Positions 3,988-55,440 of a stretch of 64,000 bases of DNA are shown piece after piece (the stretch's first letter is position 1; the number at the start of each line of letters is the position of its first letter). The DNA lies in assembly GCA_964016885.1 (NCBI GenBank), contig OZ024758.1:21948001-22012000 (forward strand). Reading direction: 5' to 3'. A program made the position numbers and the translations under genes. This stretch comes from Eledone cirrhosa (Eukaryota). The notes beneath the pieces are model-generated. The model was not told the origin of the DNA and searched no databases. It saw only the letters and a list, made by a program, of their open reading frames with translations.

Positions 3988-5245
3988 GTCGCAGTTACTG
4001 TCAGGTCACAACTCCTGACAGATCGTAAGTCCTGTCAGGTTGCAGTTCCTGAAAGTTCGTAACTCCTGGCATGCCGTAACACCAGCGAGTTCGTTACTAC
4101 TGACATACCATAGCTCCTGTCACGTCGCAGCTCCTGAAAGGTCGTAACTCCCCGCATGTCGTAACAGCTGAGATGTCGTGACTACTGACATACCATAGCT
4201 CCTAGCAGGTCGCAGCTCCTGAAAGGTCGTAACTCCCCGCATGTCGTAACAGCTGAGATGTCGTGACTACTGACATACCATAGCTCCTGTCACGTCGCAG
4301 CTCCTGAAAGGTCGTAACTCCCCGCATGTCGTAACAGCTGAGATGTCGCGACTATTGACATACCATAGCTCCTGTCACGTCGCAGCTCCTGAAAGGTCGT
4401 AACTCCCCGCATGTCGTAACAGCTGAGATGTCGTGACTACTGACATACCATAGCTCCTAGCAGGTCGCAGCTCCTGAAAGGTCGTAACTCCCCGCATGTC
4501 GTAACAGCTGAGATGTCGTGACTACTGACATACCATAGCTCCTGTCACGTCGCAGCTCCTGAAAGGTCGTAACTCCCCGCATGTCGTAACAGCTGAGATG
4601 TCGCGACTATTGACATACCATAGCTCCTGTCACGTCGCAGCTCCTGAAAGGTCGTAACTCCCCGCATGTCGTAACAGCTGAGATGTCGTGACTACTGACA
4701 TACCATAGCTCCTAGCAGGTCGCAGCTCCTGAAAGGTCGTAACTCCCCGCATGTCGTAACAGCTGAGATCTCGTGACTACTGACATACCATAGCTCCTAG
4801 CAGGTCGCAGCTCCTGAAAGGTCGTAACTCCCCGCATGTCGTAACAGCTGAGATGTCGTGACTACTGACATACCGTAGCTCCTGTCACGTCGCAGCTCCT
4901 GAAAGGTCGTAACTCCCCGCATGTCGTAACAGCTGAGATCTCGTGACTACTGACATACCGTAGCTCCTAGCAGGTCGCAGCTCCTGAAAGGTCGTAACTC
5001 CCCGCATGTCGTAACAGCTGAGATGTCGTTACTACTGACATACCATAGCTCCTAGCAGGTCGCAGCTCCTGAAAGGTCGTAACTCCCCGCATGTCGTAAC
5101 AGCTGAGATGTCGTGACTACTGACATACCATAGCTCCTAGCAGGTCGCAGCTCCAGAAAGTCGTAACTCCCCGCATGTCGTAACAGCTGAGATGTCGTGA
5201 CTACTGACATACCATAGCTCCTAGCAGGTCGCAGCTCCTTGCAGG
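3988..5245. repeat. 85-bp minisatellite (5 x 17-bp subunits), 13 near-identical copies plus diverged 17-mers
   Basis: GTCGCAGCTCCTGAAAG starts at 4124, 4209, 4294 ... 5059, 5144 (period 85). Confidence 0.97.
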
Positions 5246-5510
5246 TAGCAAAACCTTCATAGACATTTACAAATATATCTGACAGAGCCTGTAGATTTTC
5301 AGGGCTACGCTTTCCGATGGTTTTATCATCAGCATATTGAAACTGACATAAAATATTCACGATAGTTTTTTTCAGTTATTTTGGATCTTCGATGTTTAAA
5401 CATATTCGATCCATAACGATATTGGATAAGAATTTTAGCTAAGATTTATGTTATTGATCTCAGTAGCGTAGCTCCATCGTATAGATTAAACAAGATAGGA
5501 GCCAATAGGG
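5245..5510 (-). mobile_element. Degenerate RTE/BovB-like LINE RT core (YADD)
   Basis: Minus strand reads LLAPILFNLYDGATLL...ILIQYRYGSNMFKHRRSKITEK, then after a frameshift FQYADDKTIGKRSPENLQALSDIFVNVYEGF. It carries the RT LAPxLF and YADD motifs with the RTE-type YRxDGxLFNxRRL insert. Confidence 0.85.
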
Positions 5511-5780
5511 AAAAAACAGATAAGGATTCCCTATGTAAGTATCTGCCTTGTCATATCTTTCTAGGGGTCTTTGACATCTCTTTAAAAAAATGAGTTTGAG
5601 CAACCGAAGCATCCAGGAACCCTTCGTAGATTGTCACGAGGCACAGTATCGAGTGATTTGATAAAAACATAAAATTTTATACAGAGAACGACAATGTTCT
5701 AGACATTTTTTCATGAATCTGATGTATGGAAAACATCATATCCACATTATATACATATAAAAATTAAACAAGATAGTGTA

Positions 5781-5968
5781 GTGGATTGGCAGTATCGGTA
5801 GAGGGTCGGACGCCATGCTTTGACGCATAGAGTTACGGCCCTTGCCATTCTGAATTCAAATCCCGCCGAAGTTAACTTTGCCTTTCATCCTTACGGGGTC
5901 GATAAAATAAAGTACCAGTAATGCACTGGGTAATTGCTGGCCTTGTGCCAAAAAGTAGAAACAATTAT
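5781..5968 (+). mobile_element. SINE (family A; tRNA-like head, central GCCTTTCATCCTTACGGGGTCGATAAAATAAAGTACCAG, tail GTAGAAACAATTAT)
   Basis: Matches the other copies in the window. It is flanked by the 20-bp direct repeat ATTATATACATATAAAAATT (5746-5765 and 5964-5983). Confidence 0.92.
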
Positions 5969-7516: not shown

Positions 7517-8060
7517 TTGCCTGTTTGCCTGTTTGTCTGTCTGCGTGTTTATGTGTTTGTGTGATTGTCTGTTTGTGTGTTTGTGTGTTTGTATATATGT
7601 ATGTTTGTTTGATTACCTGTTTGTGTATTCATGTGTGTTTGTATGCTTACGTGTTTGTGTGATTACCTGTTTGCCTGTTTGTCTGTATATGTGTATGTGT
7701 GTTAGTGTTTGTATGTGTGTATGTGTTTGCGTGTTTGTATGTTTATGTGTTTTTGTGATTGACTGTGTATGTGTGTATGTGTTTGCGTGTTTGTATGTTT
7801 ATGTGTTTTTGTGATTGACTGTGTATGTGTGTATGTGTGTTCGTGTGTTTATGTGTTTGTATGTTTGTATGTGTATGTGTTTGTGTGTAAGTGTATGTAT
7901 GTTTGTATGTGTTTGTGTGATTGCCTGTATGTCTGTATATTTGTGTTTGTGTTTGTATGGTTATGTGTTTGTGTTAGTGTTTGTATGTGTGTATGTTTGT
8001 ATGTACACGGTAAAATATAGATTTGAACTTAAAGTGCAGGTAAAAGAGAGAAAATGAGAA

Positions 8061-8250
8061 ATAATTGTTTCTACTTTAGGCACAAGGCCAGCAATTACCC
8101 ATTGCATTACTGGTACTTTATTTTATCAACCCCGTAAGGATGAAAGGCAAAGTCAACCTCGGCGGGATTTGAACTCAGATCGTAAAGGGACGTAACTATG
8201 CTGGAAAGCATGGCGTCCGACCCTCTACCGATACTGCCAATCCACCGCCC
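8061..8250 (-). mobile_element. SINE family A, full length, with 16-bp target-site duplication
   Basis: Reverse complement of the family consensus. TSD GAAAATGAGAAATAAT at 8050-8065 and 8253-8268. Confidence 0.95.
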
Positions 8251-8424
8251 TTGAAAATGAGAAATAATGTTTGTGAGATCAAGAATGAAAGAAAGAAAAA
8301 TGGAGAGAGAGAATAAGAAAGATATATATATAGAGAGAGAGAGAGAGAGGGAGATAAGTGTGTGTGCGTGTATGTCTGTGTGTGTGTGTCTGTGTGTGTG
8401 TCTGTGTGTGTGTGTGCGTGCTTG

Positions 8425-8775: not shown

Positions 8776-8980
8776 GGGCGGTGGATTGGCAGTAATGGGA
8801 GAGGGTCGGACGCCATGCTTTGACGTATAGAGTTACGGCCCTTGCCATTCTGAGTTCAAATCCCGCCGAGGTTAACTTTGCCTTTCATCCTTACGGGGTC
8901 GATAAAATAAAGTACCAGTAATGCACTGGGTAATTTGCTGGCCTTGTGCCTAACGTAGAAACAATTATTATTATTATTAT
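8776..8980 (+). mobile_element. SINE family A, full length, (ATT)n tail
   Basis: GGGCGGTGGATTGGCAG ... GTAGAAACAATTATTATT, flanked on both sides by (TTA)n. Confidence 0.95.
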
Positions 8981-9575: not shown

Positions 9576-9764
9576 TTGGCAGTATCGGTAGAGAGTCGGA
9601 CGCCATGCTTTGACGTAATAGAGTTACGGCCCTTTCCATTCTGAGTTCAAATCCCGCCGAGGTTAACTTTGCCTTTCATCCTTACGGGGTCGATAAAATA
9701 AAGTACCAGTAATGCACTGGGATACGTGCTGGCCTTGTGCCTAAAGTAGAAACAATTATTATTA
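9576..9764 (+). mobile_element. SINE family A
   Basis: Aligns by eye with the other copies from TTGGCAGTATCGGTAG to GTAGAAACAATTATT. Confidence 0.93.
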
Positions 9765-10475
9765 TCATCGATAAATTTCTTACTTTAAGACTTCGAATTT
9801 TGTATTTAATAGAAAAATATTACACTTTGAACTTAGCCAAAAAGCCGAAATCAATTGGTAAATGTGATAGTATATACCATCAACCTAAAATGATGTTTTA
9901 CAATATATAGAAACTTGTACTGTCAAAAAGGGCAGTTTTTTTTTTATATTTTACTGGTCCAGTGAACGGTTTAATGAAAGTTATAAAAATTTGATTAAAA
10001 ATGTTGATAGTTTATTTACTAAAATACTATATTATTATTTACAAAATATTGATTGTTTTTACATTGGTTCTTTTCTATCGAATTCAAAAGTAACATATAA
10101 AATCGAAATGGAAGCAACGGAACGCACATCATTTTTGCATATTTAGTACTACTTATATTAGTTTTTGTATATTTAGTACTACTTATGTTAGTTTGTGTAT
10201 ATTTAGTACTACTTATATTAGATTGTATATACAAAGACATATACCTTTTTTATGTATTTTACTTATGTTTCAATAAATTCCATAATAGGAAGAAACATAG
10301 AAGACTTTCCAGCTATGACCATCTAGTCAATATATCATTTAATATAAATGGTATATATAGTATAATATGATGTATGAACATTTAATATATTTACGAATTA
10401 TATATATATATATACACACACACATATATATATATATATAAAGAAACATTTTATATATATATATATAAAATGTTT

Positions 10476-11730: not shown

Positions 11731-11858
11731 CCTTTTCTGTCTGTCATAAATACCTCATCTTAACATTTACTTAATACATACGTCTGTTGTCACACTGTTT
11801 GTCATTTCACAGTCAACAAAAACACTAAGCTCATTATGATATACGGATTATTATTATA

Positions 11859-12702
11859 GTGGATTGGCAGTATTGGTAGAGGGTCGGACGCCATGCTTTG
11901 ACGTATAGAGTTACGCCCTTGCCATTCCGAGTTCAAATCCTGCCAAGGTTAACTTTGCCTTTCATCCTTACGGGGTCGATAAAATAAAGTACCAGTAATG
12001 CACTGGGTAATTGCTGGCCTTGTGCCAAAAGTAGAAACAATTATTAGTTAGGGCGGTGAATTGGCAGTATCGGTAGAGGGTCGGACGCCATGCTTTCCAG
12101 CATAGTTACGTCCCTTTACAGTCTGAGTTCAAATCCCGCTGAGGTTGACTTTGCCTTTCATCCTTACGGGGTCGATAAAATAAAGTACCAGTAATGCACT
12201 GGGTAACTGCTGGCCTTGTGTCTAACGTAGAAACAATTATTATATCAGAATCGGTAGAGCGACAGACACCATGCTTTGCAGCACAGAGTTACGCCCATTT
12301 ACGTTCTGAGTTCAAATCCTGTCGAGGTTAACATTGCTTTTCATTCTTACGGGGTCGATAAAATAAAGTACCAGTAATACACTGGAGTCAATTTAATCGA
12401 CTTTCCCCTCCCCCCAAAATTGCTGGCCTTGTGCCTATACTATACTAGAAATCATTATTATTATTAGTAGTAGTATTATTGGATTGGCAGTAATCGGTAG
12501 AGCCATGGACACTATGCTTTGAAGCATAGAGTTGTGGCCCTTTACGTTCTGAGTTCAAATTTGATTTTTATTTTACGGGGTCGATAAAGTAAGGTAAAGT
12601 CATGCACTGAAGTCGATTTAATTGACTATCCCCTGCCACTCCTCCCCCCCCCCCAAATTACTGGCCTTGTGCCTATACTAGAAATACTTATTATTATTAT
12701 TA
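11859..12702 (+). mobile_element. Four head-to-tail SINE family A copies (11859-12046, 12051-12243, 12246-12480, 12481-12702)
   Basis: Each has the head, the GGGGTCGATAAA core and the GGCCTTGTG..TAGAAA tail. The last two are a longer, more diverged variant with an extra GTCGATTTAATCGACT...CCCCCC segment. Confidence 0.92.
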
Positions 12703-17330: not shown

Positions 17331-17366
<36 letters not shown>

Positions 17367-17675
17367 AAAGTTCTATTTAAATTTTTGGGATACAACAAGC
17401 AAATATTTTTATAACTGATATAAAGCACTCAACAAATAATTGGAGTAAAATTACGATATTAACAAATGGAAACTATATTTATAAAACCATATTTATTTCA
17501 TTATACATATTTCAAGGACACCAAGTTAAATTATGGTGTGCTTTCATCAGATAAAATATAATATAGAGCAGTTTTATAAATAAATATTGACATACCCTTA
17601 AAGAATTCAACCATTGAAATATGTATAATGAAATAAATATGGTTTTATAAATATAGTTACCATTTGTTAATATCG
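17367..17675. mobile_element. Hammerhead-bearing element (family H), internally inverted copy
   Basis: The 5' part is collinear with 52238-52308. Segment 17452-17614 is the reverse complement of the rest of the element, and the 3' ~62 bp is repeated in forward orientation. Confidence 0.85.
17494..17558 (-). ncRNA. Minimal type I hammerhead ribozyme
   Basis: The reverse complement is identical to 21019-21083. Confidence 0.8.
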
Positions 17676-17708
<33 letters not shown>

Positions 17709-20700: not shown

Positions 20701-20962
20701 AGGAAACCTTGAAGATTTTTTAAGAAAATAAAACTTATGTTGCAAAGGAAAGATTTTAAATGAAATAAAAACCCATAATATGTATATGTTTGTGTGTATA
20801 TATATATATATATATAGGAAAAAGTATGACTCCGACGGCAGAGCTCAAGCAGTTTCGACGGCTATTTCTAAGTATTGAGTACTCTGGTGCGTTATTGTCC
20901 ATCTGGTTCCTTACCACATTTCCTTTGTTATATATATATATATCCGGGAGCTTCCAACAGAA

Positions 20963-21125
20963 ATGGTCGCATTCTTTAAGGGTATGTCAATATTTATTTA
21001 TAAAACTGCTCTATATTATATTTTATCTGATGAAAGCACACCATAATTTAACTTGGTGTCCTTGAAATATGTATAATGAAATAAATATGGTTTTATAAAT
21101 ATAGTTTCCATTTGTTAATATATCG
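20963..21125 (+). mobile_element. Hammerhead-bearing element (family H), 5'-truncated copy
   Basis: Near-identical to 52308-52469 and flanked by (TA)n. Confidence 0.85.
21019..21083 (+). ncRNA. Minimal type I hammerhead ribozyme
   Basis: Stem I TATTTTAT/ATGAAATA; CTGATGA at 21027-21033; stem II AAGCACACCA/TGGTGTCCTT; GAAA at 21064-21067; quasi-palindromic stem III ATATGTAT; AUA triplet with predicted cleavage after 21075. Confidence 0.8.
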
Positions 21126-30600: not shown

Positions 30601-30683
30601 AGTGGCATTGGTTATGGTGATGGTGGCGTCGATGTTATTGTTGGTGGAGGTGATGCCATATATATATGTTTTATTATTTGTAA

Positions 30684-30857
30684 TATCAGTAGAGAGTCGG
30701 ACGCCATGCTTTCCAGCATAGTTACGTCCCTTTACGATCTGTGTTCAAATCCCGCCGAGGTTGACTTTGCCTTTCATCCTTACGGGGTCGATAAAATAAA
30801 GTACCAGTAATGCACTGGGTAATTGCTGGCCTTGTACCTAAAGTAGAAACAATTATT
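30684..30857 (+). mobile_element. SINE family A with 9-bp TSD
   Basis: Consensus match; ATTATTTGT at 30673-30681 and 30852-30860. Confidence 0.92.
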
Positions 30858-31330
30858 TGTGTATGGTTGCTCTCAGAGTTTTTCACTAGTTGCCAGATCC
30901 ATCTGAATCTTCTGTGTATATCTATATTGTGTGTATATTGTGTATATACAGTATATACCATGTCTATCTATACTGCGTCTATATTATGTATAACTATAGC
31001 ATGTCTATCTATATTGTGTCTATATTGTGTATATACAGTATATACCATGTCTATCTATACTGCGTCTATATTATGTATAACTATAGCATGTCTATCTATA
31101 TTGTGTCTATATTGTGTATATATATACCATGTCTATCTATATTGTGTATATATATACCATGTCTAGCTATATTGTGTCTATTTATATTACCAGGTCCATT
31201 CTAATCTATTGTGGCTATCTATATTGTGCAAAAACTTTCGATCAACTGATTTTATTGGTATTATCTCCCTTGTTTGTTTCGTAGGTTTTATAAACGTCTA
31301 GTAAAGAGTTTATGTCAGTTAATTGCCTAA

Positions 31331-31519
31331 ATAATTGTTTCTACTTTTGGCACAAGGCCATCAATTACCCAGTACATTACTGGTACTTTATTTTATCGAC
31401 CCCGTAAGGATGAAAGGCAAAGTTAACCTCGGCGGGATTTGAACTCAGACTGTAAAGGGAGGACGTAACTATGCTGGAAAGCATGGCGTCCGACTCTCTA
31501 CCGATACTGCCAATCCGCC
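31331..31519 (-). mobile_element. SINE family A with 12-bp TSD
   Basis: Reverse complement of the consensus; GCCTAAATAATT at 31325-31336 and 31517-31528. Confidence 0.92.

Positions 31520-52205: not shown

Positions 52206-52210
<5 letters not shown>
51757..52210. mobile_element. Rearranged copy of the ~610-bp RTE-5'UTR-like element
   Basis: 51757-52075 is the reverse complement of 54227-54545, and 52071-52210 is a forward copy of 54060-54199. Confidence 0.88.
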
Positions 52211-52237
<27 letters not shown>

Positions 52238-52468
52238 AAAGTTCTATTTAAATTGTTGGGATACAACAAGCAAATATTTTTATTACTGATATAAAACACT
52301 CAGCAAATATGGTTGCATTCTTTAAGGGTATGTCAATATTTATTTATAAAACTAATCTATATTATATTTTATCTGATGAAAGCACACCATAATTTAACTT
52401 GGTGTCCTTGAAATATGTATAATGAAATAAATATGGTTTTATAAATATAGTTTCCATTTGTTAATATC

Positions 52469-52469
<1 letters not shown>
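52238..52469 (+). mobile_element. Hammerhead-bearing element (family H), longest collinear copy, 232 bp
   Basis: (TA)n(TG)n-AAAGTTCTA...TTAATATCG-(TA)n, with ends shared with the copies at 17367 and 55368. Confidence 0.88.
52365..52429 (+). ncRNA. Minimal type I hammerhead ribozyme
   Basis: Identical to 21019-21083; CTGATGA at 52373-52379 and GAAA at 52410-52413. Confidence 0.8.
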
Positions 52470-52530
<61 letters not shown>

Positions 52531-52538
<8 letters not shown>

Positions 52539-53050
52539 ATACTTTGGGAGGGTCATGTTGCCAATAAGAAACACACGCACCAGTTGCTTTCACTTCAATT
52601 TATTATAATAAATTTATAAATTTAGGAATTTATAAGTTTCCGGTTGGTTGGTTGGTTCCACAACCAGATGATTGTTTATATATTGTCAAAGTTCTTTCGT
52701 CACACATTATGTTACCTCTTCAGTGACTGGGGATTCTTTTCTTTGTTTTTGTGCCTCTCCTTTGTTCTGTCCTACGCCATCTTGTTTTTGTGTGTGTTGT
52801 GTGCTTAGTTTGCGCATGTGTTACATCCGGGTGTCTGTGTGTGTTTATATTTGTTTATTTATTTGTTTATTTACATGTTACTGGTTGGTTGGTTGTTCTA
52901 TGTGCGTGTGTGTTTTCATTTTGTCCTTAATTGTAAGTTGTGATGTTGCTGTTCCATTATTGGCAACATGACCCTCCCAAAGTATAACAATATCGGTTTC
53001 AACACACGTTTTCAGATAAAGAATCTTGCTAAACAAATTCAGAAAAGAAA
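52531..53050. mobile_element. Insertion in (TA)n with a perfect 37-bp inverted repeat and an unpaired 3' extension (Penelope-like architecture)
   Basis: ATATTGTTATACTTTGGGAGGGTCATGTTGCCAATAA (52531-52567) and its exact reverse complement (52957-52993), followed by a ~57-bp tail. A related TGACCCTCCCAAAGTA occurs at 36665. Confidence 0.65.
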
Positions 53051-54774: not shown

Positions 54775-54921
54775 ACTCAGGAAACTGAGATAACTTCGAT
54801 ATAAAACCTGCCGCTCAGTAGTTACCGATGATGTTGATATTTTCTTCTTTTGGGGTTATAGCTACTGTCGCTCAGAGAGTGGGATTGGCTCAGTGCACGA
54901 TAGAATTAATTGATAATTATT

Positions 54922-55104
54922 AATAATTGTTTCTACTTTTGGCACAAGGCCAGCACTTACCCAGTACATTACTGGTATTTTATTTTATCGACCCTGTAAG
55001 AATGAAAGGCAAAGTTAGCCTCGGCGGGATTTGAACTCAGAATGACAAGGGCCGTAACTCTATACGTCAAAGCATGGCGTCCGACCCTCTACCGATACTG
55101 CCAA
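54922..55104 (-). mobile_element. SINE family A
   Basis: Reverse complement of the consensus. Confidence 0.92.
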
Positions 55105-55158
55105 ATAATGGTATATCGTGCAATGGCCATACTCGATAACGAGGGGGAAGCCATAATG

Positions 55159-55311: not shown

Positions 55312-55367
<56 letters not shown>

Positions 55368-55439
55368 AAAGTTCTACATTTGAAATATGTATAATGAATA
55401 AATATGGTTTTATAAATATAGTTTCCATTTGTTAATATC

Positions 55440-55440
<1 letters not shown>
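55368..55440 (+). mobile_element. Family H internal-deletion derivative (both ends kept, hammerhead core lost)
   Basis: TGTGTGT-AAAGTTCTA is joined directly to TTGAAATATGTATAATG...TTAATATCG-(TA)n. Confidence 0.8.

Follow-up and report, generated by a model that had tools for sequence, protein, structure and literature searches.

A 232-bp sequence in TA repeats of Eledone cirrhosa is very probably two head-to-head 3' ends of a hammerhead-bearing, Hydra-type Penelope-like element

We analysed a 64,000-nt window of Eledone cirrhosa DNA (contig OZ024758.1, positions 21,948,001 to 22,012,000). An initial annotation had described positions 52,238 to 52,469 (the 232-mer) as a discrete, non-autonomous element of ~230 bp that carries a minimal hammerhead ribozyme. 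Against an un-inverted natural copy used as the unit reference (L008:1480-1752, 273 nt), the 232-mer is no unit in itself but consists of two 3' ends, each truncated on its 5' side, that meet head to head. The family has two 3' ends, A (~182-187 of the unit) and B (~269-274), 88 nt apart, and in un-inverted copies the tail directly adjoins site A. The plus-strand arm of the 232-mer was a 100% match to positions 22-185 of L008. The inverted arm matched the unit at 96% in reverse orientation, and the two arms overlapped by 2 nt. The features of the family in the window are as follows.

52207..52237, no strand: (TA)8(TG)7 tract at end B
52238..52310, minus strand: inverted arm taken from the 88-nt tail (unit ~197-269), with its 3' end at site B
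52309..52469, plus strand: short arm, 5'-truncated 3' end of a Hydra-type Penelope-like element (PLE) (unit 22-182), ending at site A
52470..52533, no strand: (TA)32 target tract at end A
52365..52429, plus strand: minimal type I hammerhead motif, predicted to be self-cleaving
52365-52372 with 52422-52429, plus strand: hammerhead stem I, 8 bp with one G.U
52373-52379, plus strand: CUGAUGA box
52380-52409, plus strand: stem II, with one C-C mismatch
52410-52413, plus strand: GAAA box
52413-52420, plus strand: stem III, a palindromic, self-complementary 8-mer
after 52421, plus strand: predicted hammerhead cut, at an AUA triplet
17363..17615, minus strand: long arm of the second insertion (unit 21-273), comprising the whole hammerhead (17494-17558) and the tail, with its 3' end at site B
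17423..17446, minus strand: copy of the start-site motif after site A, ACTC-N12-GAGT-GCTT
17614..17678, plus strand: inverted short arm of the second insertion (unit 121-185), with its 3' end at site A
20941..21124, plus strand: third insertion, single arm (unit 1-185) with the whole hammerhead (21019-21083), ending at site A
55365..55440, plus strand: fourth insertion, ~12 nt of inverted B end and an arm (unit 121-182) ending at site A

The window thus holds four insertions, the number given in the annotation, but their ends are not common to all: the two shared ends ascribed to the 232-mer belong to two oppositely oriented arms, each being the 3' end of its arm; the AAAGTTCTA end is missing from the 20941 copy; and the 17363 copy has its arms arranged differently. 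The fourth insertion (55365..55440) is without the CUGAUGA box.

Other repeats were observed in the window. The 3' end of a second hammerhead-bearing Hydra family lies at 20820-20929 and shares its TA tract with the 20941 copy; the 5' end and ORF start of this family, which has 36% protein identity, were found in L005. Another minimal hammerhead-like motif, of an unrelated family, occurs on the minus strand at 52695-52723, 230 nt from the 232-mer. A ~190-bp repeat of SINE-like size is present in nine copies at 87-95% identity.

5779-5968, 8060-8251, 8781-8970, 9576-9768 and 11857-12046: ~190-bp repeat, copies 1-5
12050-12241, 30676-30858, 31329-31519 and 54904-55105: ~190-bp repeat, copies 6-9

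The 3' ends of the family were fixed and the 5' ends were not. The 3' end was A in 32 and B in 34 of 67 arms that were not selected by a search; the remaining arm ended elsewhere. Of the terminal ends, 197/213 led into a run of TA or CA, bearing out the annotated insertion in TA repeats. The 5' ends of unselected young arms were scattered from -147 to +238 relative to the unit, so that unit position 0 is ruled out both as a fixed 5' end and as the place where transcription starts. Arms of the first search clustered at unit positions 0 and 22 because of the query and TA microhomology there. A further 9/236 arms had 5' ends at unit 118-126, the 3' foot of stem II, a count made with no background comparison; examples are at 17614 and 55380 in the window and in L010 and L130. 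These ends possibly reflect an RT pause.

To follow the copies upstream, we took two loci that extend beyond the unit and searched with that stretch, retrieving 20 loci. The walk crossed a pyrimidine- and AT-rich 3'UTR into an ORF with RT and GIY-YIG domains. The family is therefore a new one of a described clade, not a non-autonomous retrozyme, and as an element it is ordinary. A whole element in L105 comprised 4,280 nt: a 47-nt 5'UTR, the ORF, a 1.75-kb 3'UTR and 273 nt of hammerhead and tail. Of 30 loci retrieved by means of the 5'UTR, 28 had the 5'UTR joined scarlessly to end B of the copy upstream, giving the arrangement pLTR-ORF-pLTR. An open ORF of 742 aa was present at L168:4483-6711; the pLTR of that copy belongs to a sister subfamily (88-91% identity). 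An AlphaFold model of the ORF protein had a pLDDT of 89.5, and its top five Foldseek matches were telomerase RTs. The protein had 208 homologs, the best at 40% identity, three of them labelled Argonauta hians. A Pfam search with a 658-aa ORF gave no RT or GIY-YIG match and one sub-threshold match to BLI1, and a PDB profile search gave a weak RT match (E 0.64).

Related elements were also seen. In L166, an upstream pLTR of one subfamily is joined to the body of another, possibly by template switching. A third Hydra family (L210-L221; ~50-60% protein identity) has a longer stem II, a different stem III palindrome and at least 263 pLTR-ORF junctions. Blind sampling yielded a 727-aa open piece of another Hydra-like ORF (L031:2-2182; 42-47% identity), near which a hammerhead was not recognised. 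RT fragments occur at L069 ~4900-5850 (minus strand) and L119:667-1932; we take these to be Naiad-like from their motifs.

Hydra-clade PLEs are described as having a telomerase-like RT and C-terminal GIY-YIG, RWK, DKT in place of DKG, no N-terminal GxKF/Y and a CxCX5C linker; they lack CCHH, have CxxC and CxH placed about a conserved E and N, bear a hammerhead in the pLTR and insert into (TA)n (PMC8557442). The element described here has a single ORF in which a telomerase-like RT precedes a C-terminal GIY-YIG, recognised by its motif and conserved residues (Y622, Y635, G637, R646, H650, E705 and N717). The L168 protein contains RWR at 37 (R for K), DKT at 118 and YRDD, CxCX5C at 601, CxxC at 699 and CxH at 726; there is one Cys between GIY and YIG, and CCHH is absent. 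DKG and GxK[FY] were looked for in this protein and neither was present. DK[TS] was found in 75/75 aligned proteins. The element also has the hammerhead in its pLTR and inserts into (TA)n. Judged by every motif test, it belongs to the Hydra PLEs; an assignment to Nematis or Naiad was ruled out on motifs.

The annotation had also proposed that the sequence is abundant and young, which was borne out: the exact 65-nt hammerhead sequence occurs in 2,413 copies in the 3.0-Gb genome (reversed control, 0). A degenerate pattern with an intact core, which spans several related families, gave 67,366 matches genome-wide (control, 0). In a blind sample of 79 stretches (790 kb, positions chosen blind), 21 clusters were similar to the hammerhead family, corresponding to a stratified estimate of ~64,000 loci (34,000-123,000), of which ~5,600 (700-40,000) were estimated to be young. 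Exact pLTR-5'UTR junctions numbered 79 genome-wide. On the four largest contigs, 300 kb of the sample contained 2 clusters of the family, and the 490 kb from the other contigs contained 19, though 55/79 full-length junctions lay on the four largest contigs. In contigs of three sequencing runs, the family was present in organism A and sparse in organism B, which has no bearing on expression.

That short copies are much more numerous than full ones (2,413 exact hammerheads and 79 exact junctions) could be taken to mean that they are a separate non-autonomous mini-element or retrozyme, transcribed by itself and mobilised in trans by the Hydra protein. The clustering of first-search arms at unit positions 0 and 22 points the same way, and non-LTR retrozymes have been proposed to be PLE derivatives (bioRxiv 10.64898/2026.07.22.740005). 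However, unselected young arms start anywhere in the range given above, the clustering is accounted for by query and microhomology, and the hammerhead variants of the short copies are also present in ORF-bearing copies. Same-strand neighbours in ORF-bearing elements were 3.1-4.2 kb apart. Five other same-strand pairs were closer (335-1741 nt), but no array was seen in the loci examined. We consider a separate mini-element improbable. The copies are better described as fragments of a Penelope element, an outcome that the annotation had entertained, except that their 3' ends are fixed at two sites; the family appears as an already catalogued Penelope element in none of the literature searched.

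The anatomy of the hammerhead agreed with the initial annotation. Direct comparison confirmed that the 65-mer is letter-identical at 52365-52429 (plus), 21019-21083 (plus) and 17494-17558 (minus), and both boxes, stems I-III and the AUA triplet were found at 52365-52429. The reading of the motif as a minimal type I hammerhead of the PLE pseudo-LTR kind, with a palindromic stem III, was right. A check with hammerhead models had been suggested; against Rfam, the 232-mer gave zero hammerhead matches at E<=10, and the 150 matches listed for the window were microsatellite matches to miRNA models. The fold of the motif was only mildly stable (z -1.8), and the active hammerhead fold, at -6.0 kcal/mol, lay above the MFE at -10.5. 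The core C3-A9, G12-A15.1, U16.1 and H17 were present, with three stems showing covariation. Pair 10.1-11.1 is A-U, whereas PLE hammerheads typically have G10.1-C11.1 (PMC4209133).

Variants were preselected for an intact core and a stem II of 30 nt; in the 49 distinct ones, 97.1% of cells were paired, and two stem II pairs changed on both sides (C-G to U-A in 7 variants, A-U to G-C in 2). Compensatory stem changes were also seen between subfamilies. A fully self-complementary stem III 8-mer was found in 30/31 variant classes, a result partly built into the search. The annotation had proposed weighing conservation of the core boxes against that of the flanks, and we did so in 131 arms (40 of 171 primary search matches having been dropped). 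Changes affected 23/1441 core cells (1.6%), 45/3013 3' flank cells (1.5%), 366/3930 stem II and loop cells (9.3%) and 117/1048 5' flank cells (11.2%): the core was more conserved than the 5' flank and than stem II with its loop, but no more so than the 3' flank. Position 7, which is free to vary in hammerheads, varied in 12/131 arms. Because the core is no better conserved than the 3' flank, the inserted copies show no sign of selection. Nor is the identity of the 65-mer beside variable flanks evidence of selection, since 3 differences in 161 nt would miss a 65-nt stretch with probability 0.21.

The distribution of the arms around the predicted cut site bears on the template. This site was spanned by 198/236 arms and only 1/236 started there; similarly, 23/28 upstream pLTRs read through it. 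The template was therefore uncut or re-ligated, as proposed earlier (PMC4209133), and cleaved 3' fragments were ruled out as templates. It may have been an uncut tandem RNA or a re-ligated circle; the data fit both alike. There was no signature of A-to-I editing (A>G 85, T>C 88).

In principle, the host could keep solo hammerheads for a function of its own, such as cutting read-through or intronic RNA; with 67,366 intact-core matches genome-wide, many must lie in transcribed regions. We regard this as very unlikely: the core decays at the rate of the 3' flank, the arms run across the cut site rather than starting at it, and single minimal hammerhead motifs of the related kind did not cleave as monomers in vitro (PMC4209133). 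To judge from related elements, the hammerhead of a solo copy is instead most likely a passenger. By the same analogy, a lone hammerhead would cut inefficiently, and activity would call for a dimer or for help from the protein. The site of action would be the pLTR-ORF-pLTR transcript, in which the partner hammerhead is ~4.2 kb away and cleavage would serve template processing. In the Poseidon element, cleavage needs the protein and is dispensable for insertion in vitro (PMC11167929).

We then scored which 3' ends are combined in two-armed insertions. In total, 63 were AB, 2 were BB and none was AA. The 44 short head-to-head insertions comprised 42 AB, 1 BB, 0 AA and 1 unresolved; they derive from 50 rows, of which 6 with one arm running into the ORF were dropped, and two were read by eye. 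The first search, which supplied 23 of the 44, disfavours AA because it favours tail-bearing loci. In the blind sample of random DNA, 9/9 pairs were AB (p 0.002 if ends are independent at 50:50). Twenty long loci chosen by the 5'UTR gave 13 AB, 1 BB and 6 unscorable cases, another 20 loci read by eye gave 7 AB with the rest unscored, and the window copy at 55365 was one more AB. The BB insertions were L011 and L166, the latter being the chimera of two subfamilies. It has been noted qualitatively that the tail frequently occurs at just one of the ends (Craig 2021, PMC8557442). The arms overlapped in 6/9 random pairs; the region upstream of A is therefore often copied twice. The arms of one insertion agreed at 69/84 polymorphic sites, compared with 64% for random pairs. 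Arms of one insertion are thus closer but not identical, which fits one source; two templates per insertion are possible.

A repeated motif, RCTC..GAGY-RCTT, lies 7-9 nt downstream of each end in three families; in the family described here the spacing is 7-8 nt. The copy that follows A reads ACTC..GAGT-GCTT and the one that follows B reads GCTC..GAGC-GCTT, so that an A-U pair in the first is G-C in the second. In the 790 kb of random DNA, the motif had 31 matches, compared with 2-6 in five shuffles, and the matches were mostly in the ends of several hammerhead families. Both copies were present in the family with 36% protein identity (L005, one locus and one 5' end). In the third family, the motif was predicted and then tested, giving 263 matches (control, 0) with a Hydra ORF downstream in 12/12 loci retrieved. 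In a fourth family, the B-site prediction was not borne out: there were 4 matches, and no ORF accompanied any of them. The predicted start-site hairpin was no more stable than shuffles (z +0.38 and -0.65).

Overall, we are highly confident that the 232-mer represents two 5'-truncated, hammerhead-bearing 3' ends of an autonomous 4.3-kb Hydra-type PLE, set head to head in a TA repeat and likely made by nicking of two strands and RT start at two fixed RNA sites 88 nt apart. From the sequence evidence, A and B likely mark two RT start sites on one RNA. The element's protein would nick both DNA strands of the TA repeat and RT would begin at the two fixed sites. A protein dimer would bind one RNA, each subunit on one copy of the motif and each priming from one nicked strand, and the two cDNAs would stop at random and join through short overlaps. 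For a Poseidon element, cutting of both strands and RT starts at two internal sites that bound the tail have been reported in vitro; RNA 3' of the starts is required and the protein is predicted to be a dimer (PMC11167929). Against the scheme, the two strands did not differ in start site in that work.

How the two sites come to be paired is less certain. The simplest reading, one RNA with two subunits that each take one motif and one nicked strand, seems to us about evenly poised between right and wrong. We suggest, somewhat more tentatively, that the duplicated RCUC..GAGY-RCUU is the start signal of the Hydra-type PLE RT, that its copies set both starts and hence the tail length, and that a dimer on one RNA primes each site from one nicked strand. 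If true, start signal and dimer jointly explain the tail, the inversions and the rule of one A and one B. A weaker contender, though one to be taken seriously, keeps the same parent element and dispenses with the two-site dimer: one cDNA would start from B, with the A end made by endonuclease resolution, or a second RNA would be used in fixed order. The tail has been attributed to EN-mediated resolution (Craig 2021, PMC8557442), overlapping arms need a region copied twice (6/9 random pairs), and in a few pairs the arms disagree at subfamily sites (L015, L021). However, both ends of the tail map to RT starts in vitro (PMC11167929), single-armed insertions end at A or at B, and the same motif stands at the same distance after both sites in three families.

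The way in which PLEs generate their tails and inverted ends is still unsettled (PMC8557442, PMC11167929). With the pairing counts and the repeated motif, a specific mutational test becomes available in a family that is young and retains an open ORF. A search of the openly accessible literature found neither the family nor the pairing counts nor the repeated motif. In an annotation of short repeats, these ends would be classed as a SINE or a retrozyme. At least 67,000 matches to the hammerhead pattern in the genome come from this lineage alone.

In L1 twin priming, both target strands prime on one RNA, giving a 5' inversion; the second primer starts at variable sites and the arms do not overlap. 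The insertions described here are similar in that two strands would prime on one RNA with a 5' inversion, but both starts are fixed and most arms overlap. A close parallel in vitro is Poseidon PAc of Anolis (Frangieh et al. 2024, PMC11167929), which likewise has two internal RT starts bounding the tail, an AT-rich target, copies reading through an uncut hammerhead and RNA determinants 3' of the start sites. By contrast, PAc belongs to another clade and its ORF starts inside the hammerhead, whereas here it starts 47 nt after the tail; the repeated start-site motif and the A/B pairing rule were found here, and the portion of that report available notes neither.

Compared with the Hydra clade as described (Craig et al. 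2021, PMC8557442), in which a length under 3 kb is general but a tendency and not a criterion, the present element has 4.3 kb, because of its 1.75-kb 3'UTR. Its tail is 88 nt rather than 30-40, it has tens of thousands of copies, and its hammerhead differs from that of Hydra-1_Obim and from the Hydra rows examined in File S2; the family is therefore not Hydra-1_Obim. A report of 31 PLE families in an octopus does not mention hammerheads in the portion available (PMC13282606). Non-LTR retrozymes share with this family the type I hammerhead with a palindromic stem III (PMC7229834; bioRxiv 10.64898/2026.07.22.740005), short non-coding dispersed copies and a link to PLEs (bioRxiv 10.64898/2026.07.22.740005). 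Short head-to-tail arrays of the hammerhead family were absent from the loci examined. Retrozymes are head-to-tail arrays that lack an ORF (bioRxiv 10.64898/2026.07.22.740005), whereas the copies described here are truncated pieces, inverted or single, that come from an element with an ORF.
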